Assembly: GCA_964016885.1 (NCBI GenBank)
Contig: OZ024755.1
Location: 38,192,001-38,256,000 of the forward strand
Source of the DNA: Eledone cirrhosa
Taxonomy: Eukaryota
Length of the DNA: 64,000 nucleotides
Reading direction: 5' to 3'
Shown: positions 9,760 through 56,480 of the stretch, in pieces
Numbering within the stretch: the stretch's first letter is position 1
Layout of the letters: every line of letters begins with the position of its first letter
Program-made: the position numbers and the translations under genes
Notes under the pieces: generated by a model
Told to the model about the DNA's origin: nothing
Seen by the model: the letters and a program-made list of their open reading frames with translations, nothing else
The model's database searches: none

Positions 9760-9799
<40 letters not shown>

Positions 9800-9827
9800 A
9801 ACAAAAGATGGTTAAAGGAGTTCCATG

Positions 9828-9895
9828 TATTTTATTATGCGCATTTCAAAAACAAACATCATCATGCAATATTTGTGTTTTCATCAGATAAAACA
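9828..9895 (-). ncRNA. Type I hammerhead ribozyme motif, intact core
   Basis: UGUUUUAU-CUGAUGA-stem II-GAAA-UGCGCA-UA^AUAAAAUA. Confidence 0.85.
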
Positions 9896-9982
9896 GGAGG
9901 ACATGATATGAAGGCTAAAAAACACGTGGATAGTGCAGTTTTAAATCAACATATATATATATATATATACAATATATATATA

Positions 9983-10278
9983 TCATCATCATTTCATTTT
10001 ACGTCTGCTTTTTCCCTGAACTGCTGGCTTGATTTCTACAGCTGGATGCCCTTCCTAACACCAACCTCATTTACAGTGATTGCTGGGTGCTTTTTTGCCG
10101 TGGCACCTCCACGACCACTTTGCAGTGGAATGATAGGGACCCCAGTCCCTAGCATCTCATTTCTACAGCTGAGTAAACTGGGGCAATGTGAAATAAAGTC
10201 TCTTGCTCAAGGAAACAACACATCACCTGGTCTGAGAATTGACCTCACAACCTTTCGATTGCAAGGCCAATGCTCTAA
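9983..10278 (-). mobile_element. tRNA-headed SINE
   Basis: Matches the full copy at 42851-43190. Confidence 0.9.
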
Positions 10279-10313
10279 CCACTAAGCCATATGCCTCTAT
10301 ATATATATGTATG

Positions 10314-10363
<50 letters not shown>

Positions 10364-10400
10364 TTTTTAACAAATGGAAACTATATTTATAAAACCATAT

Positions 10401-10470
10401 TTATTTCATTATACATACTTCAAGGGCCACCAAAGCAGATTATGGTGCACTTTCATCAGATAAAATATAA
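10401..10470 (-). ncRNA. Degenerate type I hammerhead motif (GAAG instead of GAAA)
   Basis: UUAUAUUUUAU-CUGAUGA-AAGUGCACCA..UGGUGGCCCUU-GAAG-UAUGUA-UA^AUGAAAUAA. Confidence 0.7.
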
Positions 10471-10548
10471 TATAGATTAGTTTTATAAATAAATATTGAC
10501 ATACCCTGAAAAAATGCAACCTTTACGGTTTGAGTCTCCTGGATAGTC

Positions 10549-10664
10549 TTTTAATGTGGGCTCAAATGTAAATTAGCGCTTGCGGCCCATCTGATGATGA
10601 GTCATATCTCATGTGGCCCGCTTCTTGAAAAAGGTTGCCCAAACCTGGTATAGATCTTCCCAAG
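10549..10664 (-). repeat. Inverted local duplication of 9026-9141
   Basis: Reverse complement of the hAT MITE left end plus about 17 bp of its unique flank. Confidence 0.85.
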
Positions 10665-10782
10665 ACTATATATATATATATGGTCGTCAAGTATGAAATT
10701 TGTAGAAAAAAACATGACTATATGCCTCACTACAAATTTCATACTTGACCACCCAATATATATATATAACAAAATATTCTCT

Positions 10783-10844
<62 letters not shown>

Positions 10845-10879
10845 TAAATATATATATGTATATATATGTAGGTATATAT

Positions 10880-11605
10880 ATCATCATCATCATCATCATC
10901 ATAACTGTTTAATGTCCATTTTTCCACGCTAGCATGGGTTAGACAAGTTGCCTGCTATGAGAAATGCCAGGTCAGGTGACCATGTCTTGTTCATACAGAA
11001 CTGTTTCTAGCTTGGTTTCTACAGCTGGATGCCCTTCCTAATGCCAACCTCATTTACAGTGTAGGCTGGGTGCTTTTTGTTACGACCACTTTACAGTGTG
11101 GGCCGGAGGCTTTACTAGATGGATGCTTCAGATTGTCCTCCTGGCAGATGTATGGCAAGGTGGGTTGGGGTGGTGCATTCTATATATAAGCTTCATCTTC
11201 AGCCTGTGCCCGTGGGAAGACAGGCCTTCTGTATTACTGCAAATGCCAGAGATCTTGGTCATCATCTTTGAGAGGTGCAATTGGGCAAGATCAGCTTTTA
11301 TCACCTCATCCCAAGTCTTCCTGGGTCTCCCCACTCCAAGGCTTCCATCAACTTTGAGCACTCTGCACCTGTTTATACAGCTGTCATCCTTCATATACAT
11401 GTCCATACCAACACAACCTGCTCTCTTGCCCACTACATATCACTCCTCTTCTAGTTTCTTTCTCAGTTTATTTATGCCTTGCCATTCACGTTATATAACT
11501 ATTACACGTCCATTGGAGTATGTAAGGCTTCTACACTCAACATCCAGGTCTCACTACCATGTAACATTGCTGTTCAGATGCTCACATCATACAGTCTGCC
11601 TTTCA
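10880..11605 (-). mobile_element. RTE-type LINE 3' end with (GAT)n tail
   Basis: CINRCRVLKVDGSLGVGRPRKTWDEVIKADL; tail shared with the SINEs. Confidence 0.85.
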
Positions 11606-12310
11606 TGGTGACAGTGAGGGTGGGGATGATGGTGATGGTGATAGTGATGGTGATGGTGATGGTGATGGTGATGATAGTGATGGTGATGGTGATAGCAATG
11701 GTGATGGTGATGATAGTGATGGTGATGGTGATGGTGATAGCAATGGTGATGGTAATAGCAATGATGATGGTGATGGTGATGGTGATAGCAATGGTGGTGG
11801 TGCTGGTGATAGTGATGGTGATGGTGATGGTAGGAATGATGATGGTGATGATGGTGATGGTGATAGCAATGGTGATGGTGATGATAGTGATGGTGATAGC
11901 AATGGTGATGGTGATGGTGATGGTGATAGCAATGATGATGGTGATGGTGATAGCGATGGTGATGGTGATAGTGATAGCAATGGTGATGGTGATGGTGATA
12001 GCAATGGTGATGGTGATAGCAATGGTGATGGTGATGGTGATGGTAGGAATGATGATGGTGATGATGGTGATAATGGTGAGGATAGTAATGGTGGTGGTGG
12101 TGGTGGTGGTGGTGATAATGATAGTAATGGTGATGGTGGTGGTGATGATGGTGATAACAAATTAATTAATGGTGACAGTGATGATAGTGGAGTTAGGTGG
12201 TGGTGATGGTGATGATGGTGATAGTGATGTTATGGTGATGATGATGATGACAGTGGTAATGAGAGATATGATGACAGTGGTAATGACACTGGTGATGATG
12301 ATGATAGCAG
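11606..12310. repeat. (GAT/GGT)n degenerate trinucleotide tract
   Basis: Direct reading. Confidence 0.95.
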
Positions 12311-12686
12311 TAAAGAGAATATACTAATTTCAGGCTAGAAATATGATTATATCTGACTAACTGTAACATTATTTATGTTAAGTAGCTTATCTCTTTATCA
12401 TTTATTTCATCTGGAAAGAGGGGTTTACACTAATATATCTGTGTGTGTATATATATATATATTATTTAGACTGGGGGTGTCATCAACACCTAATACTTAA
12501 GTTTTTTTTAACTCTACTGTTTAGTTTATCAGTCTCGTTTTTGTCCAACTGCTAAAGTACAGGACATAAAAACACAGATGCCTTCACAAATATAAACATA
12601 GATATAGATGGACACACACATATATATATACGTACACATAACAGGTTTTTTTCTGTTATCATCTACCAAATTCTACTCACAAGATA

Positions 12687-13190
12687 TTGGCAATAGGTTG
12701 GGCAGCTTTCAACAAGAACAAGGAAGTACTAACATCGAAACGAGTTTCCTATCATTTGAAGGTTAAGATCTTTGATACTTACATCCTACCAGTTGTGTTA
12801 TATGGTCTTGACTGTGTTAATTGGATGACAAGGTCACTTCAGAAGCTCTTTACATTCCAGAACCACATCATGAGACTTATGACTGGTAAGCAGCTCAGTG
12901 AGCTGCTCAACATAAGATCAGTTACATCAATTGTCAAGTCAAGAGTACTCAAACTATACGGCCATATAAAGAGATCAACTCGTGGTGTGAGTAGGTTATA
13001 CCTGGAAGGAAGGTTGGCTGGTAAGAGAAGCAGAGGCCGGCAGCCAAACGATGGCTTGACAAAGTCAACTGATGGACTGGACTTGATCTTTACTCTTTGA
13101 ACTTTGCTGTTGGTGATCGAACTTTGTGGAGAGAGATATCACATGTTGATGTACAGTCTGCAACTGGCGGAGTTTAGCATCACAAGAGAG
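12687..13190 (+). mobile_element. RTE-type LINE C-terminal fragment
   Basis: LKVKIFDTYILPVVLYG...LKLYGHIKR...GKRSRGR motifs. Confidence 0.8.
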
Positions 13191-13628
13191 AAGACAATAG
13201 TGGAAGACACTTGGTTAATGTGGCACACAGTTGAACTGAACCTAGAATCACATGGTTGTGGAGCAACCTCCTTAACTACAGTCACACATGGACCTATATA
13301 TATATATATATCAGCATCACTGTTTCACGTCAGTTTTTCCATGCCGGCATGGGTTAGGCGGGTTGTCCTGTTGTAGGCAATGCCAGGTCAGGTGACCATG
13401 TCTTGCTCATATATATATATATATATAATATATATGTATATGTGTAATGGTAACACATTAGTCCGGCAAACCAAAAATGTGGATTCATGTCCCATGTACG
13501 TCAATACTCATCCTTTTTTTCCATCCAGAGGGTTTTTTTAAATCCTAACTAAGCAGACTAATTCTATTTAGTCAAATGCAACGTAAGCACATATTACTAC
13601 CTAATATATATATATACTGGTCAAACAT

Positions 13629-13695
<67 letters not shown>

Positions 13696-13698
<3 letters not shown>

Positions 13699-13990
13699 AT
13701 CGAAAGGTTGTGAGTTCAATTCTCAGACCGGGTGATGTGTTGTTTCCTTGAGCAAGACACTTTATTTCACATTGTTACAGTTTACTCAGCTGTAGAAATG
13801 AGATGATAGGGACTGGGGTCCCTATCATTCCACTGCAAAGTGGTCGTGGAGGTGCCACGGCAAAAAAAGCACCCAGCACTCACTGTAAATGAGGTTGGTG
13901 TTAGGAAGGGCATCCAGCTGTAGAAATCAAGCCAGAATCAGTTCCCGTCCCACCCTTGCAAGCAGGGAAAAGTGGACGTAAAAGGATGAT
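13696..13990 (+). mobile_element. tRNA-headed SINE, 5' truncated
   Basis: Matches 42888-43175. Confidence 0.9.
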
Positions 13991-14304
13991 ATATGTTTCA
14001 CCAAGTACAGATTGGACAGAGTATGGAATTTGAACTCAGAAGCACAAAGCAACTCATCTGACTTTAATAATTCTGTCAATCCATTACTGATACTCTTAAT
14101 CTTCTTCTAAGTTTAAATCCCACCCATCACCCACTTTAACACCATCACTCCCATCCATCTCAGTTGTCCTGAAATGGGTCAGCGAACATTGCTTTTCCCT
14201 CTCTCACTAAACAGTTAAAAATAAAATAATTTTTACAAGAATTTTGTTGGGTTTACAAAAATTGGGAGGTGTTGGTAAACAAACTAGAAGTAAGAAACAT
14301 CTCA

Positions 14305-14897
14305 TGTCTTGTGCTAAAGCAGGGGTTAGTCTTGTCAAGGACATGGTCAATGTCTTGTGTTAAAGCAGGGGTTAGTCTTGTCAAGGACATGGTCAATGTC
14401 TTGTGCTAAAGCAGGGGTTAGTCTTGTCAAGGACATGGTCAATGTCTTGTGCTAAAGCAGAGGTTAGTCTTGTCAAGGACATGGTCAATGTCTTGTGCTA
14501 AAGCAGGGGTTAGTCTTGTCAAGGACATAGTCAATGTCTTGTGCTAAAGCAGAGCTTAGTCTTGTCAAGGACATGGTCAATGTCTTGTGCTAAAGCAGGG
14601 ATTAGTCTTGTCAAGGACATGGTCAATGTCTTGTGCTAAAGCAGAGCTTAGTCTTGTCAAGGACATGGTCAATGTCTTGTGTTAAAGCAGGGGTTAGTCT
14701 TGTCAAGGACATGGTCAATGTCTTGTGCTAAAGCAGAGGTTAGTCTTGTCAAGGACATGGTCAATGTCTTGTGCTAAAGCAGAGCTTAGTCTTGTCAAGG
14801 ACATGGTCAATGTCTTGTGCTAAAGCAGGGGTTAGTCTTGTCAAGGACATGATCAATGTCTTGTGTTAAGTCTTGCTAAGAACATGGTCAATGTCTT
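14305..14897. repeat. 46-bp minisatellite, about 13 copies
   Basis: tgtcttgtgctaaagcaggggttagtcttgtcaaggacatggtcaa. Confidence 0.95.
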
Positions 14898-15352
14898 CAT
14901 TTTACCCTGTCCTCTTCCAACCCCCCTCCTTAACCTTTTATCTTCCATTCCCTCCCCCACCACCTTTATCTATGTCTTCTTTAGTTTACACCTTTCCTCT
15001 CCTTCCACAGTCATTTCCACTATTTTCAGCCTCCCTCAAATCTTTTTTTAAAATAATTTTTCATTTAATTTTGATTAATTTATTTTTTATTTTTATTTGT
15101 CTTCTAAATATTTAGAAGAAGATTGGAAGATGGTGGAGGTTGGGGTGGGGGTTAGATAATAACATGTTTAATTACACTATGTTATACTACAATTATATTA
15201 AAATATGTATATCTTAATTTGCTTCAGTTTCTTCGGTTTGTTTAATGTTGTGACCAGGAATGTTTGCCCCTCATTTATTTTGACACTAACAACAATTATG
15301 TACCCTAAATGTTCTAAATTACTAGGATTTTAGTAACATGTTTCGACATTCC

Positions 15353-15404
15353 TTATGCTCCGATGATTCCAGACTTCCCTCTGGAAGAAACAATTGTCAG
15401 CAAA
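15353..15404 (+). ncRNA. Type I hammerhead motif with CCGAUGA core
   Basis: UGCU-CCGAUGA-UUCCAGA(cuuccc)UCUGGAA-GAAA-CAAUUG-UC^AGCA. Confidence 0.75.
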
Positions 15405-15600
15405 TAAATGTTTTAAACTAAAATTTGATCGTTTAAACACTTTGTATCTCGTCTCTGTATAACACTTAAAAATTTGCATTGAGCCTTTTGTCATACCGGT
15501 AACGGGCTAGTACTTAGTACTAGCCTACATATTTATAGTTATATCAAACATATATAAAGATAAATATTCTTATTACTATATATATATATATATATATACG

Positions 15601-15706
15601 ATATTAATAAATGGAAACTATATTTATAAAACCATATTTATTTCATTATACATATGTATAATGAAATAAATATGGTTTTATAAATATAGTTTCCATTTAT
15701 TAATAT
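15601..15706. repeat. Perfect 106-bp palindrome
   Basis: 53-bp arms centred between 15653 and 15654. Confidence 0.95.
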
Positions 15707-15799
15707 AGTATATCTACTCCAAAAACTTGTCGAGTGCTTTATATCAGTTATAAAAATATTTACTTGTTGTATCCCAACAACTTTAAATAGAACTTTTGC

Positions 15800-15839
<40 letters not shown>

Positions 15840-16254
15840 ATCTGGTTTAGAATAGGTACACTGTGTATGAATATATATATATATGTGTGTGTGTGTCTGG
15901 GTTACAATAGGTACACCCTGCATGTCTTACAAGTGATTAAAAGAGTCGGCACCAGGAAACATTGACTCCCAAATATTAAGCCTGTCATGAGGCCCCCTCA
16001 AAAGAAGCCCCTGCTTTATAGCAAGGGCAATTACTTTTAAACACTTGTCTTTTACCTGTTTAGTAGGTTAGAACATAAAGTAGGTATATTATATACTGTG
16101 TCAACTGGAAACTGAATCTTGAGTATTCAGTTCCATTCACCCAGAACTTAAAGCCACCAGTATGTATAAGGTGTCTACAGAATGTAATGCTATACCCTTT
16201 ACATGCGTTAGGTCTGATATGAAATGGTTTAAAATAAAATAATATTAATTTAGG

Positions 16255-19094: not shown

Positions 19095-19422
19095 CATCAT
19101 TTTTCATCATTTCATTTTACATCCGCTTTTTCCCTGCTTGCAAGGGTGGGACGGGAACTGATTCTGGCTTGATTTCTACAGCTGGATGCCCTTCCTAACA
19201 CCAACCTCATTTACAGTCAGTGCTGGGTGCTTTTTTTTTGCCGTGGCACCTCCACGACCACTTTACAGTGGAATGATATGGACCCCAGTCCCTATCATCT
19301 CATTTCTACAGCTGAGTAAACTGGAGCAATGTGAAATAAAGTGTCTTGCTCAAGGAAACAACACATCACCCGGTCTGAGAATTGAACTCACAACCTTTCG
19401 ATTGCAAGGCCAATGTGCCTCC
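19095..19422 (-). mobile_element. tRNA-headed SINE
   Basis: Matches 42851-43190. Confidence 0.9.
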
Positions 19423-19561: not shown

Positions 19562-19726
19562 ATTATTGCTTGATGATGTTTGTTTTTGAAATGCGCATAA
19601 TAAAATATATGGAACTCCTTTAACCATCTTTTGATCTTATATTATGCATACTCCAGTCCCACAAACTGTAGAGTGCTTCTTATCCGATATCTGCATTGCT
19701 TTATTGTACTACAATAAAACTCACCT

Positions 19727-19730
<4 letters not shown>
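19562..19730 (+). mobile_element. TA-flanked element: hammerhead 3' half plus 3' tail
   Basis: gaaatgcgcataataaaata as at 49163; ends aataaaactcacctccta(TA)n. Confidence 0.75.
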
Positions 19731-24471: not shown

Positions 24472-24474
<3 letters not shown>

Positions 24475-24629
24475 GAAAGAGTATGATCCGACGGCAGAGC
24501 TCAAGCCGTCGAAACGGCTTGAGCTCTACCGTCGGGGTCATACTTTTTCCCATTTCCCACTCTACTACCCTAAGTGTTGAGTACTCTGATGCGTTATGGT
24601 CCATCTGGTTCCTTACCACAATTCTTTTG

Positions 24630-24632
<3 letters not shown>
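24472..24632 (+). mobile_element. TA-flanked fold-back element containing a hammerhead 3' half
   Basis: Arms 24474-24550; GAAACGGC...CCGUC^GGGGUCAUAC; same family as 47325-47535. Confidence 0.75.
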
Positions 24633-30217: not shown

Positions 30218-30955
30218 ATGGAAGCCCTTATGAGTGAAATTGTGTAGGAAAGTATATGGAAGCCCTTATGAGTGAAATTGTGTTCGAAATTATATGGAAG
30301 CCCTGATGAGTGAAATTGTCAGTGGAAATTATATGGAAGTCCTTATGAGTGAAATTGTGTTGGAAAGTATATGGAAGCCCTTATGAGTGAAATTGTGTAG
30401 GAAAGTATATGGAAGCCCTTATGAGTGAAATTGTGTTCGAAATTATATGGAAGCCCTGATGAGTGAAATTGTCAGTGGAAATTATATGGAAGCCCTTATG
30501 AGTGAAATTGTGTTGGAAAGTATATGGAAGCCCTTATGAGTGAAATTGTGTAGGAAAGTATATGGAAGCCCTTATGAGTGAAATTGTGTTCGAAATTATA
30601 TGGAAGCCCTGATGAGTGAAATTGTCAGTGGAAATTATATGGAAGCCCTTATGAGTGAAATTGTGTTGGAAAGTATATGGAAGCCCTTATGAGTGAAATT
30701 GTGTAGGAAAGTATATGGAAGCCCTTATGAGTGAAATTGTGTTCGAAATTATATGGAAGCCCTGATGAGTGAAATTGTCAGTGGAAATTATATGGAAGCC
30801 CTTATGAGTGAAATTGTGTTGGAAAGTATATGGAAGCCCTTATGAGTGAAATTGTGTAGGAAAGTATATGGAAGCCCTTATGAGTGAAATTGTGTTGGAA
30901 ATTATAGGAAGCCCTTATGAGTGAAATTGTCAGTGGAAATTATATGGAAGTCCTT
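30218..30955. repeat. 38/39-bp minisatellite with a 153-bp higher-order period
   Basis: Variant tgtgtagg at 30241, 30394, 30547, 30700, 30853. Confidence 0.95.
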
Positions 30956-33684: not shown

Positions 33685-34261
33685 GCAAGTGTTTCGGTGT
33701 GGAACCCTTAATATGAGCAAGATGTGTTCATGTGACAATGTCTGGTCACAAACTGTAACGACCTGTCACAGATTTTATGATCTGAGTCAAATCCTATTGA
33801 AAATCTCTGCTCTCTCAGATGGATCAAATGGAATATGTCTCCTTCACACAGTCTATTTCTATGGTAGAACACTCTGCCTAACACTCACACTTCTCACAGT
33901 GTACTGGACACTGTTTATAGTAGCATGAACACCAAAGAAATAACCTTGTTCCCTTATATAGATGATGATGATGGTGATGATATGTATATTTAATTATTGA
34001 CATTAGTACCACTATTTTACAGAATGGGCTATGGGCTTTTCATCATGATATCAGCGCTACCACTTTACAGGGGGCTTTGTATGTGTATAATATATTTCTC
34101 CACATCTCTCTCTCCCTCTCTACAGTATTTCTGTAGACAAGGTAAAGGAAAGAAGAGTGCTCTATGTATAGTACAGAGCTATTTAATTATGTAATAAACA
34201 ACACAATATAATTATTCCATTACCAAAGGTAAGAAACGTCCAGCCTGTTCATCAGATAAAG

Positions 34262-34850
34262 TAATAATTGTTTCTACTTTAGGCACAAGGACAGCAATTA
34301 CCCAGTACATTACTGGTACTTTATTTTATCAACCCTGTAAGGATGAAAGGCAAAGTTAACCTCGGCGGGACTTGAACTCAGATCGTAAAGGGACGTAACT
34401 ATGCTAGAAAGCATGGCGTCCAAAGTAATAATAATTATTATTATTACTCAGCTGTAGAAATGAGATGATAGGGACTGGGGTCCCTATCATTCCACTGCAA
34501 AGTGGTCGTGGAGGTGCCACGGCAAAAAAGCACCCAGCACTCACTGTAAATGAGGTTGGTGTTAGGAAGGGCATCCAGCTGTAGAAATCAAGCCAGAATC
34601 AGTTCCCGTCCCACCCTTGCAAGCAGGGAAAAATGGACGTAAAATGATGATGATGATGATGATGATATATATATATAATTGTTTCTACTTTTGGCACAAG
34701 GCCAGCAATTATCCTGAGATACTTTATTTTATTGACCCTGTAAGGATGAAAGGCAAAGTTAATCTCGGCAGGATTTGAACTCAGACCCTAAAGAGCCGTA
34801 ACTCTATGCTGCAAAGCATGGTGTCAGACCCTCTACCGATACTGCCAATC
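34262..34850. mobile_element. Cluster of three SINE copies
   Basis: Two minus-strand ggatgaaaggcaaagttaa-type copies flank a plus-strand truncated tRNA-SINE (34446-34665). Confidence 0.85.
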
Positions 34851-34994
34851 CACGTTGATGGACCCAGTACATTTATCAATGCCAGGACTGGTTGTATCTC
34901 AGCGTACTCCGAGGGCAATATAAGATACACTCCCAGAGTATACACATAGTTATTCACTTCAATACAACACACGTAAAACGGGTGCTTATAATAG

Positions 34995-35110
34995 TTCCTG
35001 GACTCGAGTTTTGGCTGCACTTTATGCAGCAGTAAGGGGAACTGCACCATCCGTCTGCATATATTATGCAACAATGCACAATCGGCTTGTGCAGCTTCAT
35101 CAGCGGGTAT
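34995..35110 (-). ncRNA. Degenerate type I hammerhead with long stem II (G12 changed to A)
   Basis: ACCCG-CUGAUGA-AGCUGCAC...GUGCAGCC-AAAA-CUCGAG-UC^CAGG. Confidence 0.7.
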
Positions 35111-35460
35111 CGGCTTGTGCAGCTTCATCAGCGGGTATCGGCTTGTGCACTTCACTTCATCAGCGGGTATCGGCTTGTGCAGCTTCATCAGCGAGTATCG
35201 GCTTGTGCAGCTTCATCAGCGGGTATCGGCTTGTGCACTTCACTTCATCAGCGGGTATCGGCTTGTGCAGCTTCATCAGCGAGTATCGGCTTGTGCAGCT
35301 TCATCAGCGGGTATCGGCTTGTGCACTTCACTTCATCAGCGGGTATCGGCTTGTGCAGCTTCATCAGCGGGTATCGGCTTGTGCAGCTTCATCAGCGGGT
35401 ATCGGCTTGTGCAGCTTCATCAGCGGGTATCGGCTTGTGCAGCTTCATCAGCGGGTATCG
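35081..35460. repeat. 28/32-bp minisatellite, 13 copies, made of the hammerhead 5' half
   Basis: tcatcag at 35097, 35125, 35157...35445. Confidence 0.95.
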
Positions 35461-35718
35461 CCTAATCAATAACCAATCGATCGACAGAATCCAAACCCCA
35501 GCCCATGCCGGTCATGATTGTTTGTGACAACCGACACGGTAAAGGGACTAGCAACTGGAACCCGATACAACTCTGTCCCCCAACCAGCCACCGATTTACA
35601 AACTTTACGTGGTGGCGGGAGAATAGAAAACCAATCTTTTCGTTCCCGTCAAAAGCCCTCAGCCAACGTGTCTTAATAAGAAGTGAAAGGATGGATATTA
35701 GAAATAGCAGTCCACATC

Positions 35719-38705: not shown

Positions 38706-38957
38706 TCAAAATATTACACAAAAACATATATTATTTAGCGAAATTACTGACACCAAAAATTATGAATATAATAAATAATTGTTTCTACTTTTGGCACAAG
38801 GCCAGCAAATACCCAGTACATTACTGGTACTTTATTTTATCGACCCCGTAAGGATGAAAATATATATATGTGTGTGTGTGTAATATATATGTGTGTAATA
38901 TATATATATGTGTGTAATAATAACATTAAGAAAGATGCTGTGATTACATAAATCGTT

Positions 38958-39050
38958 TATTCATTATAATTATTTCAAAGGTTCCCTTATTCAATCCAAA
39001 ATGAACTATTTGTTTGTTGCTGGTATGGGAACGATATCTTCAGATGAAAT
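38958..39050 (-). ncRNA. Type I hammerhead motif, CUGAAGA core, decayed stem II base
   Basis: UUCAU-CUGAAGA-..GUUCCC...GGGAAC..-GAAA-UAAUUA-UA^AUGAA. Confidence 0.6.
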
Positions 39051-39837
39051 ATTCGTGTATGTGATATGCTGCAGACAAAAAGCATGTTCTTCTTCTTGTA
39101 TGCCGAGCAAGCATATATATAAACAACACTGTCTTTCAAAATGGCGATCGAGGTTTTCATTCTGTTCTCTTCAATGTTTTAAAGACAGCATTGCTTCCGA
39201 ACCTGTAGCCTGTTATTTTGGACTTCATACAGCTTATGCTGAACCCTTTTACAACAACATTATAGGCAAACTACTTTCCTCTGAAGAGTCTCAACAGGTA
39301 CAATTTTACATAAACCTTATTACATAAACCATACATTATTTCTACATAAACCATATATAAACCTAAGAATACAAATACTACCCTTGATGGTGAAACACTG
39401 CGTAAGGAATAAAACTGTTAAGAATCTTATTTTCTCCATCATATATTTCTGTTTATATAATAATGTATATATATATATAAGTATTGAAGTTTCCGTTGAA
39501 AATTGAAAAAGTCATAGGAGTGAAGAGTGCTCTATGTAAGTACCAGAGCTAAATCTGGATGTACATTATTTTTCAACTTATATTATATACGTATTTGTCA
39601 CACATACACTATTATGCTTGCCCTCATATACACACTTACGCACACACACATTTTCACTATACACATGCATTTGTACAAACACACATATGTACATTTGTGA
39701 GTGAATATAAACACATTTATACACATACCCTAACTATATTTCCTTATTTTTTTATATATCTCTTGCTTTGTTTTTTTTTTGCCCGTTAAACTCTTGCCTT
39801 TCTTGAGGAGATTTTTCAAATATTTCACTATGTTTTG

Positions 39838-39915
39838 AATTGCCTTGTCCGATGAACGAATGAGGACGTTTTTCGTATTCGTCTTATTTGGGAAACCTCT
39901 GGTAATGAGGTAATT
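39838..39915 (+). ncRNA. Type I hammerhead motif with CCGAUGA core
   Basis: AAUUGCCUUGU-CCGAUGA-stem II-GAAA-CC(ucu)GG-UA^AUGAGGUAAUU; 11-bp stem I including GU pairs. Confidence 0.75.
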
Positions 39916-39949
39916 ATATTGTATTGTATTTATTATATACTATTATATA

Positions 39950-40790
39950 CTATTAGCCGCTAAAGGGTTCTCCCTAAAAATGAAAGGCAGGCTGTATGAT
40001 GCCTGCATACGAACAGCAATGTTGCATGGCAGTGAGACCTGGGCATTGTGTGCAGAGGATATACGCAGACTAGAGAGGAAGCTTGCATGCTCTGCTGGAT
40101 GTGTAATAGTAATATACGTGAACGGCAAAGCATAAACGAACTAAGGGAAAAATTAGAAATAAGAGGGATCAGATGTTGTTTACTCGAGAGAAGGCTACGT
40201 TGGTATGGTCACGTGATGCGCATGAAAGACAACAGCTGTATAAAAAAGTGCAGGGCAATAAAAATAGATGGTAGCCACGGAGTATGCAGACCCAGAAAAA
40301 CCTGGGATGACTTGATAAATTCCGACCTCACACACTTACACCTATCCAAGACAATGTCACTGGACCGAGATCTTTGGCGGTACTCAGTAATAGAGAAGAC
40401 CCGCCTTACCTAAATACAAAGTAAAACCTACTACAGTCAGTAGGCACCTCTAACAAAATACACCCCCGTCCCACTACCCCCACCCCATCCACACCACCCC
40501 TTTCAATGTAAAGTTATGTTGGTACCAACATTCAGGCCGAAACAAATGAGGTCATGTAGGTGTCATGACAAAAAACACACAGTCCACGCTGTAATGTGGC
40601 CGTGTAGGTAACATGGTAAAAACCTCCCAGTTCCACACTGCAAATGTGGTTGGTGTTAGGAAGGGCATCCAGCTGTAGATGCCCTTCCTATGCGAGCAAG
40701 ACAACCACTCTTGCCTTAAGTGGGAAAACTCCCGTCCAAACCCATGCAAGTGTGGAATATGGACGTTAAACGATGATGATGATGATGATA
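39950..40790 (+). mobile_element. RTE-type LINE 3' end with long 3'UTR
   Basis: LERRLRWYGHVMRM...RPRKTWDD; stop at 40413; (GAT)n tail. Confidence 0.9.
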
Positions 40791-40834
40791 TCAATGATAT
40801 TAATAAATGGAAACTATATTTATAAAACCATATT

Positions 40835-40894
40835 TATTCTATTATATATATTTCAAGGTACCAAAACTTTGGTACGCTCTCATCAGATGAAATA
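40835..40894 (-). ncRNA. Type I hammerhead ribozyme motif, intact core
   Basis: UAUUUCAU-CUGAUGA-GAGcGUACCAA(aguu)UUGGUACCUU-GAAA-UAUAUA-UA^AUAGAAUA. Confidence 0.85.
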
Positions 40895-41070
40895 CAAAGT
40901 CTGTTTTATAAATATTGACATATCCAGGGACGAGATCTTAACGGCTCTAGTTTTTCCTGGATATTGTTGAATTACCAACAAATTAAATATCCCTTTTGCT
41001 TATATATATATATATATGACTACCTTGATTAAATCTTAACCATTTAACATCTCAGAGTATGTCATGTATC

Positions 41071-41133
41071 ATTATATTTTGTCTGATGAGGACGTACTGT
41101 TGTACATCCGAAATATGTATAATAAAATGTAAT
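41071..41133 (+). ncRNA. Type I hammerhead ribozyme motif, intact core
   Basis: AUUAUAUUUUGU-CUGAUGA-GGACGUAC(uguu)GUACAUCC-GAAA-UAUGUA-UA^AUAAAAUGUAAU. Confidence 0.9.
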
Positions 41134-41166
41134 TGATCAAAATAACATCTATTTTATTAATACTTA

Positions 41167-41204
<38 letters not shown>

Positions 41205-41211
<7 letters not shown>

Positions 41212-41518
41212 TAGAAAATGAGTTTTTTTTTCCAAAATGAAAAAAAACGAGATGTCCTACACGAGTGAAAGTATAAGGTAAAAAGATGAAATCGAAAATG
41301 CAACTGGAGTCTTTCTAAGAATATTTATTCGATTCCTTTACTTGTTTTACAGTTCTTATGCTTTTCTTGCAGATGCGAGAAAAACCACAAAATCTCAATC
41401 TCAATTTTACGTTTGAAAAGCATAAGAACTGTGAAAGCGGTAAAGGAACCAAATAAATATTCTTAAAAAGACTCCAGTTGCATTTTCGATTTCATATATT
41501 TTCCTTATATTTTCATTC
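41205..41518 (-). mobile_element. Fold-back element with about 104-bp imperfect arms
   Basis: Arms 41263-41366 and 41415-41518; one-sided tail next to (TA)n. Confidence 0.8.
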
Positions 41519-42850: not shown

Positions 42851-43190
42851 TGGAGGCACATGGCTTAGTGGTTAGAGCATTGGCCTTGCAATCGAAAGGT
42901 TGTGAGTTCAATTCTCAGACTGGGTGATGTGTTGTTTCCTTGAGCAAGACACTTTATTTCACATTGCTCCAGTTTACTCAGCTGTAGAAATGAGATGATA
43001 GGGACTGGGGTCCCTATCATTCCACTGCAAAGTGGTTGTGGAGGTGCCACGGCAAAAAAGCCTCCAGCACTCACTGTAAATGAGGTTGGTGTTAGGAAGG
43101 GCATCCAACTGTAGAAATCAAGCCAGAATCAGTTCTCATCCCACCCTTGCAAGCAGGGAAAAGTGGACGTAAAATGATGATGATGATGAT
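42851..43190 (+). mobile_element. Full-length tRNA-derived SINE
   Basis: Pol III A box TGGCTTAGTGG, B box GAGTTCAATTC, internal hairpin atgatagggac/gtccctatcat, RTE-like (GAT)n tail. Confidence 0.92.
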
Positions 43191-47324: not shown

Positions 47325-47326
<2 letters not shown>

Positions 47327-47533
47327 GGAGAAAGTATGACCCCCGACGGCAGAGCTCAAGCTGTTTCGACAGCTATTTCTGGACTAAAGTGACTTTAGTT
47401 CAGAAATAGCCATCGAAACAGCTTGATCTCTGCAGTCGGGGTCATACTTTCTCCTATTACCCACTCTACTACCCTAAGTATTGTGTACTCTGGTGCGTTA
47501 TGGTCCATCTGGTTCCTTACCACAACTCTTTCG

Positions 47534-47535
<2 letters not shown>
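47325..47535 (+). mobile_element. TA-flanked fold-back element with hammerhead stem II and 3' half
   Basis: About 65-bp arms 47325-47456; same tail as 24551-24632. Confidence 0.8.
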
Positions 47536-48742: not shown

Positions 48743-49111
48743 GATATATATATATATACCCGAATTACTTGATCGTTTTTTTTGGCTATGCAAATGATTG
48801 TTTAACCATCGTCTCAGTGTGTTTGGCCTTTAACGTTTGTTATAGCTCTGGTTAATCTGAATCATTGAGCACTTGCTACACATCTCGGAGGTTGTTTTTC
48901 ATTATTTCGTGGGCCGAAATGCGAATCTCTATAATTTATGTTTGTTTTTATATATATATATATATAATGTAGGAGGTGAGTTTTATTGTAGTACAATAAA
49001 GCAATGCAGATATCGGATAAGAAGCACTCTACAGTCTGTAGGACTGGAGTATATGTTGATTTAAAACTGCACTATCCACAAGTGTTTTTTAACCTTCATA
49101 TCATGTCCTCC

Positions 49112-49182
49112 TATTTTATCTGATGAAAACACAAATGTTATTGCATGATGATATTTGTTTTTGAAATGCGCATAATAAAATA
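49112..49182 (+). ncRNA. Type I hammerhead ribozyme motif, intact core
   Basis: UAUUUUAU-CUGAUGA-long stem II-GAAA-UGCGCA-UA^AUAAAAUA. Confidence 0.9.
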
Positions 49183-49212
49183 CATGGAACTCATTTAACC
49201 ATCTTTTGATCT

Positions 49213-49250
<38 letters not shown>

Positions 49251-49675: not shown

Positions 49676-49720
<45 letters not shown>

Positions 49721-49883
49721 ATGTATCATCATCGTTTATCGTCCATTTTCCACGCTAGCATGGGTTAGACAGGTTGTCCCATTAGAGGCAAGTCAAGTCA
49801 GTTGACCATGTCTTGTTCATACAGAACTATTTCTGGCTTGGTTTCTATGGCCGATTGCCCTTCTTAATGCCAACCACATTTAC

Positions 49884-50290
49884 AATAGAGAAGACCCGCC
49901 TTACCTAAATACAAAGTAAAACCTACTACAGTCAGTAGGCACCTCTAACAAAATACACCCCCGTCCCACTACCCCCACCCCATCCACACCACCCCTTTCA
50001 ATGTAAAGTTATGTTGGTACCAACATCCAGGCCGAAACAAATGAGGTCGTGTAGGTGTCACGACAAAAAACACACAGTCCACGCTGTAATGTGGCCGTGT
50101 AGGTAACACGGTAAAAACCTCCCAGTTCCACACTGTAAATGTGGTTGGTGTTAGGAAGGGCATCCAGCTGTAGAAAACCCGCCAGACAGTCCTATGCGAG
50201 CAAGACAACCACTCTTGCCTCAAGTGGGAAAACTCCCGTCCAAACCCATGCAAGCGTGGAACATGGACGTTAAACGATGATGATGATGAT
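49884..50290 (+). mobile_element. RTE 3'UTR fragment
   Basis: Near-identical to 40388-40790. Confidence 0.9.
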
Positions 50291-50296
50291 GATATA

Positions 50297-50626
50297 TATT
50301 TAAAAGAATAGAGGTGTAACACACGAGTTATGATATATTGGTAAAAGGAAAAGAAAATCCTGACAAATTGTTCCCAGTGAAAAATAGTTTAATTAGGAAT
50401 AAGTAAAAATTAGTAATAAGTATTGGTTAGTATTCAGTTTTGGTTTTAAATCACGGGCGCTCTATCTCAAAATTATTTTTGAAAAGCATTAGAAATGCGC
50501 AACCGGTAAAAACTTAAAACCAAAACTGAATACTAACCAATACTTATTACTAATTTTTACTTATTCCTAATTAAACTATTTTTCACTGGGAACAATTTGT
50601 CAGCATTTTCTTTTCCTTTTACCAAT
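50297..50626 (-). mobile_element. Fold-back element, 113-bp arms, 64-bp loop
   Basis: Arms 50337-50449 and 50514-50626. Confidence 0.9.
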
Positions 50627-50972
50627 CATCATCATTTTCATCATTTCATTTTACGTCCGCTTTTCCCTGCTTGCACGGGTGGGACGGGAACTGATTCTGG
50701 CTTGATTTCTACAGCTGGATGCCCTTCCTAACACCAACCTCATTTACAGTGAGTGCTGGGTGCTTTTTTGCCATGGCACCTCCACGACCACTTTGCAGTG
50801 GAATGATAGGGACCCCAGTCCCTATCATCTCATTTCTACAGCTGAGTAAACTGGAGCAATGTGAAATAAAGTGTCTTGCTCAAGGAAACAACACATCACC
50901 CGGTCTGAGAATTGAACTCACAACCTTTTGATTGCAAGGACAATGCTCTAACCACTAAACCATGTGCCTCCA
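50627..50972 (-). mobile_element. Full-length tRNA-headed SINE
   Basis: Reverse match to 42851-43190. Confidence 0.9.
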
Positions 50973-51384
50973 TCTAAACCATGTGCCTCCATATATATAT
51001 ATATATATATCATCATCATCTAACATTTTTCCATAATTGGCTTGGGGGCTGTCCCTTGTGGAACAGTGGAGACAATAGGATTAGAATGTGTGTTGTATCT
51101 GTGTGTGTACACATGACAGACAGACAGACAGTAATTAAGTTATAATTTCTCTCCTATCAATCAATTCCCTTTAATCCTATTGTTTCCACTCTACCATTAA
51201 ACATCCTTTACTGACCATCTTTTTTTCCAGCTGAAATTGAAACCAAATCATTATTTACAATGAGACACATATCTGATAACTTAATAACTCTACTTATAAC
51301 TAATCAACAAAGATTGGTGGGGTTTAGCTGGTTTAACCCCTTCTTAACCATATTTATAATGAAATACACCGAATCTTGTTTTCA

Positions 51385-52022
51385 ATCATCATCATCATTG
51401 TTTTACGTCCATTCTTCCATGCTAGCATGGGTTAGACAGGTTGTCCTGTTGTGGACAATGCTAGGTCAGGTGACCATGTCTTGCTTATACAGAACTGATT
51501 TTGGCTCGATTTCTACAGCTGGGTGCCCTTCCTAATGCCAACCTCATTTTCAGTGAGTACTGGGTGTTTTTTTGTTTTGACACCACTTTACAGTGAGGAC
51601 TGGGTGCTTTTTGTTTTGACACCTACATGACCACTTTACAGTGCGTACTGGGTGCTTTTTGTTGTGACACCTACTTGACCACTTTGTAGTGCGTATTGGG
51701 TGCTTTTTCTTTTGACACCTACATGACCACTTTACAGCGTGGACTGGGTGCTTTTTGTTTTGACACCTACATGACCACTTTACAGTGTGGACTGGGTGCT
51801 TTTTGTTTTGCCACCTACATGACCACTTTACAGTGTGGACTGGGTGCTTTTTGTTGTGACACCTACATGACCACTTTGCAGTGCGTATTGGGTGGTTTTG
51901 TTTTGACACCTACATGACCACTTTACAGTGTGGACTGGGTGCTTTTTGTTTTGACACCAACACAACCACTTTACAGTGTGGACTGGGTGCTTTTTGTTTT
52001 TGTCATTACACCTACACAACCA
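51385..52022 (-). mobile_element. SINE/RTE tail with a 48-bp internal unit amplified about 9 times
   Basis: gacacctacatgaccactttacagtgtggactgggtgctttttgtttt. Confidence 0.85.
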
Positions 52023-52898
52023 TTTTATGCTGGATGCTTTTTATCGTGATAGGGAGCTTTTTTAAAAATAATAATGGGTTGATAGTTGTATATATAGTGT
52101 TGTTAGTGGTATATAGTGTTGTTAGAGGTTAGAATAGTTATATAATAGTAATGTAAAGATAGACACCAGAAGGCTATGCCACTGTTATTCATGGTTATAA
52201 TGAGTGATCTTTTACCAATATGTCAATTAGGATTTCGGTGAGAGAGAGAAGGATCTAGAACGTAACAGCTGGTCTGCCACAGAAACATGAGCAGAATATT
52301 GATTTCTAATTGGAAGTTGGGGCAAAAGTTGATTAAATCAACCCCAGTACTTAACTGATACTTTATTTTACCGACCTTAGAATGAAAAATGGCAAAGTTG
52401 ACCTTGGCAGGATTTGAACTCTGAATGTAAGAAGTCAGAATAAATACCACAATAGCATTTTATCTAATGCTCTACCAATTCTGCCAATTCACCACCCTTT
52501 ACATGAACATAATAGTGAAACATGATTTATTAATATATAGATATGTATATACTATATACATTGTCTGTGTATATATATATATATATACACCCAGTTTAGA
52601 ATGTGAAGACTATGGCTTAGTGGTTAGAGAATGGATTCACAATCGTGAGGTTGTGAGTTTGAATTCTGGACCGGGAAATGTGTTATGTCCTTGAGCAAGG
52701 TACTTTATTTCACGTTGCTCTTTCTACCAGGAGTTGCGACCAGTAGATAGGATCAGAGTTAAGGTTTATGTGAGGTGGTGTTTTGTTAGTATTGGCATGG
52801 GAAATAGTCTTCCTTAGAGAACAAAGTAGAACAGAAAAAAGATTTACACACACACACACACACTATCTCTATATATATATATATGCTTACAAACATAT

Positions 52899-52948
<50 letters not shown>

Positions 52949-53067
52949 TCTCTCTATATATATATATATGCTTACAAACATATATTTACACACACACACA
53001 CACACACACTCTCTCTATATATATATATGCTTACAAACATATATTTACACACACACACACACACACA

Positions 53068-53113
<46 letters not shown>

Positions 53114-53159
53114 GCTTACAAACATATATTTACACACACACACGCTCTCTCTTTCTCCC

Positions 53160-53196
<37 letters not shown>

Positions 53197-53559
53197 ATAC
53201 TTACTAACATATATAAACACATATGTCTTTAGTATTATCACTTGTACTGTCACTCTATAAATATAAGACACTGTACTATTTTCCTAAACATTTGCAGCTG
53301 TTTTCTCTACCTACTAAACACTGCTCCCTTACCCCCCCCCCCCCCCCCGTCTATATTTATTATTTTACACTGTTGTTGTTTTCATGTGTTTTTTGTTGTT
53401 TCTTTTGACCGGGTGGGGTTCTATTCCCTGTCAACCATTCCAGATCCCCCCCTCCCCAACAACAACAACAACAACTACCAATACTGACAAAATGTATTTT
53501 CTTCCCATCTGTTTTTTCTTCCTTTTTATTCATGTATATTTCTGGAGTTGTACTTGTCT

Positions 53560-54695
53560 TGCAAGTGACTTCCCCTGAGACTGACTTCATCTGAGACTGT
53601 GACTTCACCTGAGACTGTGACTTCACCTGAGACTGTGACTTGATCTGAGACTGTAAGTGACTTGATCTGAGACTGTGACTTCATCTGAGACTGTAAGTGA
53701 CTTCATCTGAGACTGTGACTTCATCTGAGACTGTGACTTGATCTGAGACTGTAAGTGACTTCATCTGAGACTGTAAGTGACTTCATCTGAGACTGTGACT
53801 TCATCTGAGACTGTGACTTGATCTGAGACTGTGACTTCACCTGAGACTGTAAGTGACTTCACCTGAGACTGTGACTTGATCTGAGACTGTGACTTCACCT
53901 GAGACTGTGACTTCACCTGAGACTGTGACTTCATCTGAGACTGTGACTTCATCTGAGACTGTAAGTGACTTCATCTGAGACTGTAAGTGACTTCATCTGA
54001 GACTGCAAGTGACTTCATCTGAGACTGTAAGTGACTTCACCTGAGACTGTGACTTAACCTGAGACTGTGACTTAACCTGAGACTGTGACTTGATCTGAGA
54101 CTGTAAGTGACTTCATCTGAGACTGCAAGTGACTTCATCTGAGACTGCAAGTGACTTCATCTGAGACTGTAAGTGACTTCATCTGAGACTGCAAGTGACT
54201 TCATCTGAGACTGCAAGTGACTTCATCTGAGACTGTAAGTAACTTCATCTGGGACTGCAAGTGACTTCATCTGAGACTGCAAGTGACTTCATCTGGGACT
54301 GCAAGTAACTTCATCTGGGACTGCAAGTGACTTCATCTGAGACTGCAAGTGACTTCATCTGGGACTGCAAGTGACTTCATCTGAGACTGCAAGTGACTTC
54401 ATCTGAGACTGTAAGTGACTTCATCTGAGACTGCAAGTGACTTCATCTGAGACTGCAAGTGACTTCATCTGAGACTGCAAGTGACTTCATCTGAGACTGC
54501 AAGTGACTTCATCTGAGACTGTAAGTGACTTCATCTGAGACTGCAAGTGACTTCATCTGAGACTGCAAGTGACTTCATCTGAGACTGTAAGTGACTTCAT
54601 CTGAGACTGTAAGTGACTTCATCTGAGACTGTAAGTGACTTCATCTGAGACTGTAAATGACTTCATCTGAGACTGTAAGTGACTTCATCTGAGAC
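53560..54695. repeat. 18/22-bp minisatellite
   Basis: gtgacttcatctgagact with or without gtaa/gcaa. Confidence 0.95.
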
Positions 54696-56148
54696 CCTAT
54701 GTTGAAACAAAAGCAATTACGACATGGAAAAGTCATGTTTAGACCTTCAATTTAATCTAATCTGGCCGAGTTTACACTCACAAATAAGAACCAGGGCCGC
54801 CCCTAGGAGCATTGGATTTGGTGTACTTCATATTTGTTTCGGTTGCTGAATACAACCAGGGGTCACTGCTTCTCCTGAAGGTCAATAGTTCTCTTCTAAC
54901 TCGAGCGGGAGCGCCTTTCCATTGTCAATTTGCATTGATCATCTGCAAAGCCACATTGTTCTCAGAACCACTACACCAGTCTTTTGATGTGTGCAGCTGG
55001 AACTACTGCCACCCATTGATTTGGCAGGGTTTTTTTTGTTTTTTTTTTCAAAACACCCATAAAAACTGATAACTTCCAATATCCTGTAATGATTTATCAG
55101 AAAATATCTAAAAACATGTTTATTAGTTCAAATGTTTATTGTATCTTTACTGGTGGATAGATTGTGAAAATTTGCAGTATTAGAATACAGACTAATTAAT
55201 AATGTGATGCAGCCATATAAGGTTTGTTCCCAAAATAAGGGAACTCATGTTTTATTTAAATGTATATTAGATGTACACAAAGTTATCTCGTTCAAAATAT
55301 GGCCCTTGGGAAGTCACACAGTGGTTCAAATGTGTTTTCCATTGATTGTAACAGTACCAGAAGACATTTTCTTTGAGTGTCCTTAGCTCATTGGTTACAA
55401 ATTTTTTGTATGTTTTCCACAGTCCCAATATGATGACCCTTCAAACTTGGTTACAATTTGGGTAAGAAGTAGAAATCTCACTTATGATTGCTTTGGTACT
55501 TTTCAAGAATGCCTTACTTATGTGGTTTTATGTGGTACATGCAGGACATTAGAAATTAAATTCAGTTTACACATATCAGTAAAACTGTCAGTGACCATGC
55601 TGCAGTGCAAGGAGCATTGTGACACTAAGAAAATGATAAATGAAAATAAGATTTTGACAGTTTTTATGTGTAGTTTTGAAATGCCAAACTGATTCTTCCA
55701 TGATGTAATTGCAAATCATTGACAACTCACACCTATTCAAGTTTAGCTGGCTTTTTTATGAGGTTACATCCCATGGGAACAGGGTCAGACCTAGTGAAAG
55801 GAGAGGGGCCAAATGCCCTGCCTCTTCCCCATCAAACAGAGCCCATTTGTCTGAACAGGACCCCCTTATTTTTTCTTCCTCTTTCTTTCTCTGCTTATGT
55901 GCATGTATATATATATATATATATATAAATTTAAATTCAGCGAGAATCACATTTAGGTGGGTAGAAAGAACGAAACGTAATGCAAATTCAGGGTCATGCT
56001 GGCTAAAAAACTAGAGCTATAAACATAGGTTATAAACGCCATACAAACCAAGATGGCGGTCAAGAAGGCATTAACCGCCTAAGCCAAAAAACAAGTCAAG
56101 CTAAACAGGTCAGACAAAATAAAAGACATAATCATACATGTATATATA

Positions 56149-56480
56149 TATTTAAAAGAATAGAGGTGTAACACACAAGTTATGATATATTGGTAAACGG
56201 AAAAGAAAATGCTGACAAATTGTTCACAGTGAAAAATAGTTTAATTAGGAATAAGTGAAAATTAGTAATAGTATTGGTTAGTATTCAGTTTTGGTTTTAA
56301 GTTTTACCGGTTGCGCATTTCTAATGCTTTTCAAAAATAATTTTGAGATAGAGCGCCCGTGACTTAAAACCAAAACTGAATACTAACCAATACTTATTAC
56401 TAATTTTCACTTATTCCTAATTAAACTATTTTTCACTGGGAACAATTTGTCAGCATTTTCTTTTCCGTTTACCAATATAT
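56149..56480 (-). mobile_element. Fold-back element, same family as 50297-50626, with the loop in opposite orientation
   Basis: Arms 56185-56301 and 56363-56480. Confidence 0.9.

Follow-up and report, generated by a model that had tools for sequence, protein, structure and literature searches.

A 64,000-nucleotide (nt) stretch of the Eledone cirrhosa genome (assembly GCA_964016885.1, contig OZ024755.1, forward-strand positions 38,192,001 to 38,256,000), hereafter the window, holds 15 short islands in or beside (TA)n microsatellites, which an earlier reading of the letters (the original prediction) had described as type I hammerhead ribozymes, their variants or their halves. Our analysis indicates that these islands are very probably the hammerhead-bearing 3′ ends of Penelope-like retroelement families, the likely source being early-stopping reverse transcription primed at nicked (TA)n. 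The 15 sites represent ten repeat families (F1 to F10), each with copies elsewhere in the 3.0-Gb genome. Judged by their coding motifs, F1, F2 and F8 are the 3′ ends of Hydra-clade Penelope-like retrotransposons, which encode a reverse transcriptase (RT) plus, at the C terminus, a GIY-YIG endonuclease. The Penelope-like origin can be traced for these three families and for one locus of a fourth, and it is likely for the rest.

Hammerhead motifs and their cores

All 15 sites were located and parsed as type I hammerheads, core variants or 3′ halves, and all follow the type I order of core, GAAA and cleavage site; the permuted type-SGC order (site, GAAA, CUGAnGA), as outlined in the part of Eckert et al. 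2023 (PMC10085705) drawn on here, is found at none of them. A strict type I descriptor matched the window three times, at 9887 on the minus strand and at 41083 and 49120 on the plus strand; 60 block shuffles gave no match at all, and 60 shuffles of the whole window averaged 0.03. A looser, tuned descriptor, written after the motifs had been seen, matched six times against a mean of 0.025 in 40 shuffles. The real count is far above these shuffled controls, a comparison of the kind that the original prediction had proposed as its check. CTGATGA words at 9099, at 10591 and in the minisatellite at 30218-30955 passed neither descriptor. As had been predicted, the islands lie in or beside (TA)n: a (TA)5 run occurs within 250 nt of 12 of the 15 motifs, compared with 43% of positions drawn at random from the window. 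Micro- and minisatellites abound there, with 199 tandem repeats listed, and only rows at the listed sites were used from its repeat map, in which the reference flanks matched many unrelated repeats.

The exact CUGAnGA...GAAA...UH core is present at 9828, 49112, 40835, 41071 and 38958. All four sites predicted to be intact are among these, 40835 with one mismatch in stem I; the fifth, 38958, had been counted as variant or decayed but is intact, with a normal CUGAAGA core. Decay of the individual copy was seen at 10401 (A15.1 to G), at 34995 (G12 to A plus a change in stem I) and at 41407 (stems I and III damaged), as predicted; for 34995, 13 of 13 F9 copies keep the 5′ core and the majority keep GAAA. 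The other sites called decayed instead carry family-wide core variants. These are U4C at 15353 (CCGAnGA in 15 of 18 F5 copies) and at 39838 (CCGATGA in 13 of 20 F8 copies), and UUGAAAA, the U3-A8 core, at 50471 and 56301 in F6, where GAAA has become GCAA (A13C) in 25 of 27 F6-type copies while eight copies of F6 sister families keep GAAA. The U3-A8 core, which F6 and F10 have in common with half of the longer F7 arms, has been published for Penelope-like elements (PMC4209133). U4C was found in the literature only as a viroid variant with lower activity in vitro (PMC3088659), and our literature search found no published report of an A13C hammerhead. The three predicted half motifs are indeed 3′ halves, of F1 at 19570 and of F7 at 24510 and 47412. 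Longer F7 copies carry the whole motif (six arms in five loci, three with TTGAnAA and three with a mismatched CTGAGAA) in type I order, with a three-way-junction fold and, unlike the other families, a full stem III.

The three stems around the core are kept by compensatory change, in agreement with the prediction that the stems differ between families while pairing is kept. Stem I, which was left out of the parse, has at least three pairs in 18 of 30 subfamilies, compared with 3.1 ± 1.6 in a null in which the 3′ strands were dealt among subfamilies (maximum 9 in 2000), and it shows three to five pair types per position; N7 varies. Subfamilies that differ in their stems retain the catalytic core, H17 and the C3-G8/U3-A8 pair. 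Stem III is self-complementary or nearly so across subfamilies, and all six palindromes named earlier are present. In every full motif the computed monomer of stem III is unstable (+0.4 to +6.0 kcal/mol) and the dimer stable (−2.1 to −10.7), which agrees with the published dimer model.

Chance matches in AT-rich, low-complexity DNA would be in keeping with the lack of an Rfam match, the modest folding z-scores and the many CTGAnGA words that stand in the window without stems. This explanation has to be set against 25 motifs in 400 kb of genome sample, where ten shuffles gave 0-1, and against cross-subfamily stem I pairing far above its null, and we give it practically no credence.

Coding regions upstream of the hammerheads

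Inverted F1 pairs lying 1-4 kb apart enclose RT/endonuclease sequence, and the window copy matches at 99.4%. The full-length F1 element consists of a pseudo-long terminal repeat (pseudo-LTR), a leader, an RT/GIY-YIG open reading frame (ORF) of 808 amino acids (aa), a 3′ untranslated region (UTR) of ∼1 kb, the hammerhead and a tail; frames of 808-809 aa are open in three loci retrieved from the genome (L080, L084 and L096). A search of the genome with the F1 protein returned 103,458 candidates, of which 86 were scored, at 89-100% identity, and homologues of the protein are 33-38% identical. Its predicted structure, which is of low confidence (pLDDT 55), matches reverse transcriptases (E ∼3e-6), with telomerase RT in the first ten. 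The protein contains DKT, a CxCX5C linker, CxxC and CxH, and CCHH is absent; the endonuclease was identified from motifs, and in a by-eye comparison with the published alignment the protein follows Hydra-1_Obim closely.

F2 leads to a related ORF in L064, ∼50% identical to F1, a fragment with the linker, CxxC and CxH. F8 leads to a related ORF in three loci, ∼36% identical to F1 and continuous over 2 kb at 85%, its fragment having a partly broken linker and CxxC. In L210 alone, F6 comes after a GIY-YIG domain distinct from these (Pfam GIY-YIG, E 1.5e-5), and no RT was recovered with it. In this 146-aa fragment from one locus the GIY-YIG is C-terminal, carries CxxC and histidines and ends at a stop ahead of a 3′ UTR, an arrangement resembling that of Neptune-type elements, whose defining motifs are given in part in PMC8557442. 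Derivation from Penelope-like pseudo-LTRs, as originally predicted, is thus borne out by RT/GIY-YIG ORFs upstream of F1, F2 and F8, and the expectation of adjacent ORFs holds for these and, at one locus and for GIY-YIG, for F6.

Two apparent links were rejected. F7 is not tied to the L227 endonuclease, since the 52-nt F7 stub there is a nested passenger in a microsatellite-like 3′ UTR (10 of 14 loci), and F3 is not tied to the L133 endonuclease, since that ORF belongs to an F2-group motif downstream. Loci L228-L241 represent a Hydra-type family with a mostly microsatellite 3′ UTR, which has inherited the F7 half-hammerhead stub in 10 of 14 loci and shows no intact hammerhead in the 1.5 kb after the endonuclease. 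L225:1315-2139 and L227:805-1410 belong to another Penelope-like endonuclease family; in L227 the endonuclease is followed by a CTGAAGA motif with stem III GAAC, which clustered with 12 copies.

Anatomy of the insertions

The end statistics come from copies not picked by a family's own query, and positions are counted from the cleavage site. In the families tested, 3′ ends fall at two fixed points, one with and one without a 30-100-nt tail, at about +48/+147 (F1), +54/+140 (F2), +18/+98 (F7), +33/+120 (F8) and +48/+150 (F3), both usually against TA. TA follows the 3′ end in 17/18 (F1), 56/58 (F7), 7/11 (F2), 4/7 (F8) and 3/3 (F3) cases, which supports the predicted TA targeting. CTC-N8-30-GAG-Y-R-C-K stands near the tail start in F1, F2, F3, F8 and F9; this motif was defined after the tails had been seen and occurs in 0-25 of 2000 shuffles per tail, and none of the F4, F5, F6 or F7 copies tested contained it. 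In the supplement of PMC8557442, a coral Hydra element ends at its 3′ side in a string that matches it.

At their 5′ ends, F1 arms show a preferred stop near −123 at an ATAT patch (−121 to −126 in 9/18 unselected arms, or 31/83 copies with selected ones included), which corresponds to a modal stub of ∼270 nt, and 52/83 copies extend past it. A capped transcription start at F1 −124 is not supported, as there is no constant extra G and L075 extends beyond. F7 arms stop at −29 to −43, in stem and loop II, with junctions spread over 14-76 nt. The insertions are 5′-truncated, and many consist of two arms joined head to head at junctions that differ between insertions; two F1 loci share one junction. 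The arms at 49112 and 40835 do not overlap, as twin priming would give; those at 15654, 47412, 50471 and 56301 do. In 4/5 leader-bearing F1 copies the tail is joined directly to the leader. Loss of the 5′ part, partial tandems, an inverted copy at the 5′ side and a tail on one side only make up an architecture that is Penelope-like, and since F1, F2 and F8 run into ORFs and the arm junctions vary, the islands are read as truncated insertion products.

Fold-back islands with long inverted arms and TA flanks, as at 41407, 47412, 50471 and 56301, could also suggest DNA transposons of the miniature inverted-repeat (MITE) kind inserted at TA, in which the likeness to a hammerhead would be incidental. 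We regard this as very improbable, given that arm length varies, the tail is one-sided, many copies have one arm and long copies reach RT/GIY-YIG ORFs.

A retrozyme-like unit

F9 is an ORF-less head-to-tail unit that resembles a retrozyme and is the only defined non-autonomous unit found. It measures 835 nt, its longest stop-free frame has 88 codons, each unit has a single type I hammerhead, and its own 3′ end is joined to its own start in 11 of 16 loci, the query locus among the 11. The non-autonomous mini-elements of the original prediction are therefore represented by F9, and as a general reading the idea is not supported, since F1, F2 and F8 continue into RT/GIY-YIG ORFs. In the window, a 28-bp × 13 minisatellite at 35081-35460 is built of F9 stem I, CUGAUGA and the start of stem II, with the rest of the motif in the last unit only.

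Most islands might accordingly be taken for independent retrozymes, short self-transcribed units that cleave, circularise and reinsert whole. Beside the F9 junctions, such a view could draw on the preferred F1 stop, on the junction that two F1 loci share and on the at least 1160 nt upstream that F5 copies have in common, in which no ORF was seen. It would not account for F1, F2, F8 and F6 running into ORFs, for the majority of F1 copies passing the preferred stop or for the spread of the F7 junctions, and at none of the window sites do whole motifs stand in a tandem array. We consider it quite unlikely as an account of most islands, and continue to read them as truncated 3′ ends of Penelope-like elements.

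Families and genome-wide scale

Counts from the genome search are first-look candidates and lower bounds rather than copy numbers. They come to at least 858 for F1 (sites 9828, 19570 and 49112), 1272 for F2 (10401, 40835), 555 for F3 (41071), 1088 for F4 (38958), 2140 for F5 (15353), 54 for F6 (50471, 56301), 1544 for F7 (24510, 47412), 2184 for F8 (39838) and 2301 for F9 (34995). F10 (41407) is ∼80% identical to F6 in the motif region, and its relatives were seen in genome loci retrieved for other families. F3 is tied to the F2 group through intermediate motifs. The best F1 and F3 matches are 98-100% identical, and F4, with matches of 82-90%, appears from these identities to be an older family.

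In a 400-kb genome sample (40 stretches of 10 kb at round coordinates), the tuned descriptor found 25 motifs, compared with 0-1 in ten shuffles; one of the 25 has the look of a chance match, and in some cases both arms of a single insertion were counted. A (TA)5 run lies within 240 nt downstream of 22/25, against a background of 21%. The descriptor missed the window F4 copy and cannot match F6 (GCAA), F7 or types with a 2-nt stem III. Extrapolation from this sample gives an estimated ∼1.2-2.8 × 10^5 intact motifs genome-wide, which together with the ten families agrees with the several families and large population foreseen earlier. The predicted density of one motif per 5 kb holds in the window only when halves and decayed copies are counted; for intact motifs the genome sample gives one per 16 kb. 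When core-bearing repeats were clustered without a pairing filter, 27/102 clusters gave a good parse. Subfamilies beyond those listed earlier have stem III CTAG, GTAC, CTAATTAG, CCACTGG or CCGCCGG, or 2-nt types (CG, AT).

Features of the window

The insertions are collected in Table 1.

Table 1. Hammerhead-bearing insertions and motifs in the window (window coordinates).
Feature	Position	Strand	Description
F1 stub	9798..9954	-	tail-less 3′ end against (TA)n; hammerhead 9827-9896 intact, with stem III UGCGCA; cleavage predicted 3′ of H17 at 9836
F2-group stub	10370..10541	-	motif 10401-10468, A15.1 to G, decayed
F5 stub	15279..15576	+	motif 15351-15407, family-wide U4C, stem III CAAUUG, site UC; 3′ end against (TA)n
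F2-group head-to-head insertion	15600..15802	.	folds back at stem III palindrome ∼15654; one-sided tail; absent from original prediction
F1 3′ half-hammerhead	19563..19729	+	half motif 19578-19608 and full tail; (TA)n both sides
F7 head-to-head stub	24474..24630	.	one-sided tail; 3′ half-hammerhead 24504-24539 (+)
F9 non-autonomous unit, partial	34854..35571	-	decayed motif 34994-35110
F4 stub	38919..39121	-	motif 38956-39052, CUGAAGA core, long stem II, stem III UAAUUA
F8 insertion	39479..39937	.	inverted tail against (TA)n at 39478; sense arm 39727-39937
F8 motif	39838-39915	+	U4C core, 11-bp stem I, stem III CC-UCU-GG
F2 insertion	40790..41000	.	hammerhead arm on - (motif 40834-40895) and last 37 nt of tail on +, against (TA)n
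F3 stub	41017..41172	+	between (TA)n tracts; intact motif 41072-41132
F10 head-to-head insertion	41211..41518	.	U3-A8 motif 41407-41448 (+), decayed
F7 head-to-head stub	47326..47534	.	one-sided tail; half motifs 47408-47443 (+), 47339-47374 (-)
F1 insertion	48967..49219	.	inverted tail 48967-49053 running into a sense arm; hammerhead 49111-49183 (+) intact; cleavage predicted 3′ of H17 at 49174
F6 head-to-head insertion	50303..50626	.	U3-A8 and A13C motif 50473-50514 (+), stem III CCGG
F6 head-to-head insertion	56155..56480	.	one-sided tail; U3-A8 and A13C motif 56299-56340 (-)

Three further fragments of these families were noted. An F8-like remnant at 34124-34262 (-), missed earlier, keeps CTGATGA, stem III, the tail and part of stem II, with GAAA deleted; an F2-group fragment at 56510-56574 (-) lies between TA tracts and begins in stem III; and a long F7 insertion with a complete U3-A8 hammerhead crosses the window end (63776-64000 and L027:1-760). 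A frame for a RT of the long interspersed nuclear element (LINE) type is open at L134:2257-4872 (-) within the TA tract of an F7 insertion, and by eye a fragment similar to it follows the 39838 stub at ∼39945-40160. Matches resembling transfer RNA (tRNA) pass the Rfam threshold at 42859-42922 (+) and 13433-13503 (+); the first, which is like repeats near 10240-10300 and 19350-19420, probably represents the head of a tRNA-derived short interspersed element. Two copies of a GC-richer short repeat (9030-9130 and 10540-10660) have CTGATGA and GAAA without hammerhead stems, and resemble what we take to be a DNA-transposon MITE. The 38/153-bp minisatellite at 30218-30955 has GAAA two bases after CTGATGA, with no space for stem II.

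Proposed mechanism

The architecture suggests to us a scheme in which an element protein would nick (TA)n and both DNA ends would prime on UA-rich patches of the RNA, one at the tail end and one just upstream of the conserved tail hairpin motif, so that two short complementary DNAs (cDNAs) would be joined at their 5′ ends. Following published work, the palindromic stem III would let two hammerheads of a tandem transcript fold as a dimer, which may cut out a unit-length RNA, perhaps circularised as the template; such an RNA would explain the head-to-tail junctions. F9 would use the Penelope-like machinery in trans. No single copy in the window has a partner of its own family next to it on the same strand, so these copies are in all likelihood inert by-products.

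Several results weigh against this account of the islands. A comparison with Rfam, proposed with the original prediction, finds no hammerhead in the window at the gathering threshold, and at E ≤ 10 there is none among the 150 of 340 matches listed, a search dominated by microsatellite matches to microRNA models. Folding z-scores are modest (−2.4 to +0.1), the computed duplexes of F2, F3 and F4 dimers have little stability (−2.2 to −3.2), and in vitro cleavage of such minimal motifs is low in the data of PMC4209133 considered here. Neither the F1 protein nor its alignment has a Pfam match, the protein has no match in a PDB sequence search, and its assignment to the Hydra clade rests on motifs and the by-eye alignment comparison. 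The F2 and F6 links to ORFs come from one locus each, and in the loci examined no ORF was linked to F3, F4, F5, F7 or F10, where adjacent ORFs had also been expected. Overlapping arms require the same RNA stretch to be copied twice, unlike simple twin priming, a process for which the literature search found nothing evidently related. Finally, 5′ ends fall at the cleavage site in 0/18 (F1), 0/11 (F2), 1/58 (F7), 0/7 (F8) and 0/3 (F3) cases, and so leave no direct DNA trace of cutting. The exceptions near the site are one F1 upstream repeat at 0 (L220) and three F6 starts at +3 to +5, among the 12 F6 starts upstream of +40 that are meaningful (the reference held a TA run, giving >600 spurious rows).

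That the cDNA usually runs through the predicted cleavage site bears on a different proposal, in which cutting is no longer needed and the motif is kept as a fold for RNA dimerisation and template positioning at two DNA ends, giving two-armed insertions. F6, amplified with A13C in nearly all copies at 94-100% identity, points the same way, as do U4C, reported to be less active in vitro, as the majority form in F5 and F8 and the Hydra-type family of L228-L241, in which no intact motif was seen over the 1.5 kb past the endonuclease. Yet subfamilies with different stems conserve more than dimerisation requires, namely the core, H17 and the C3-G8/U3-A8 pair, the F6 sister families keep GAAA, and religated circles would also account for read-through. 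We judge this proposal unlikely, and prefer 3′ ends of Penelope-like elements whose hammerheads would still process the RNA.

Relation to known systems

The class, its target preference and its presence in octopus are already published, so that the surprise implied by the original prediction was too high; our search of the literature for cephalopod or octopus hammerheads found only Craig et al. 2021 (PMC8557442) on the subject. In the parts of that paper used here, a Hydra clade with canonical hammerheads and (TA)n insertion is described, including an octopus family, Hydra-1_Obim. Our Hydra-type families share with the clade a C-terminal GIY-YIG without CCHH, the DKT, CxCX5C, CxxC and CxH motifs, insertion into (TA)n, a type I hammerhead in sense orientation close to the 3′ end, an inverted 5′-truncated copy and a one-sided tail. 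The hammerheads of the window families differ from that of Hydra-1_oBim, and hence they are other families. By the same account of the clade, F1 differs in its length (∼3.6 kb, against 'generally <3 kb'), in having RLRWIA (RWI) where RWK is described, and in a low-complexity insert of ∼70 aa; the tails here are up to ∼100 nt long, compared with 30-40 bp given for Penelope-like insertions, and F8 has U4C where the listed Hydra motifs are all CUGAnGA.

Cervera and de la Peña 2014 (PMC4209133), as far as cited here, report thousands of single minimal motifs per genome, probably truncated elements. Metazoan Penelope-like minimal hammerheads (PMC4209133; Lünse et al., via PMC6765202, both in part) resemble ours in type I order, long stem II and short palindromic stem III, and in PMC4209133 also in the many divergent families per genome, mostly as single truncated copies, the opposite-strand pairs and U3-A8. 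Our estimate of 1.2-2.8 × 10^5 intact motifs compares with the ∼2,000-9,000 per genome reported there. This scale has a precedent in the ∼120,000 hammerheads of axolotl given in the available portion of Li, Clavereau and Pollet 2026 (10.64898/2026.07.22.740005). Retrozymes have been published as derivatives of Penelope-like elements. The animal non-LTR retrozymes of Cervera and de la Peña 2020 (PMC7229834), to the extent described in the portion used, are like F9 in being non-coding, with one type I hammerhead per unit and head-to-tail junctions; F9 differs in its length (835 against ∼300 nt) and in forming partial tandems, not long arrays, and the other traced families are, unlike retrozymes, the ends of coding elements. 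What is new here is the family catalogue, the estimate of scale and the family-wide core variants, although published family lists could overlap with ours.

For annotation, these data predict >10^5 ribozyme-like motifs in this genome, of a kind that Rfam does not detect in the window. According to PMC8557442, it is unclear what the hammerhead does in Penelope-like elements that carry an endonuclease. In the E. cirrhosa genome there are families that are young and near-identical, with 808-aa frames still open, ends that are defined, a tail motif in common and core variants that run through whole families; they are well suited to a panel of cleavage assays and to a transposition system in vitro. 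More tentatively, young families with altered cores (F6 with A13C on U3-A8; F5 and F8 with U4C) may have amplified widely after the change, either as undescribed active variants or because cutting is dispensable and the motif serves as a palindromic RNA-pairing device that delivers two templates to nicked (TA)n ends. If this rather unlikely possibility is true, the genome would be a graded natural mutant series of at least 20 subfamilies, testing what the Penelope hammerhead is for.

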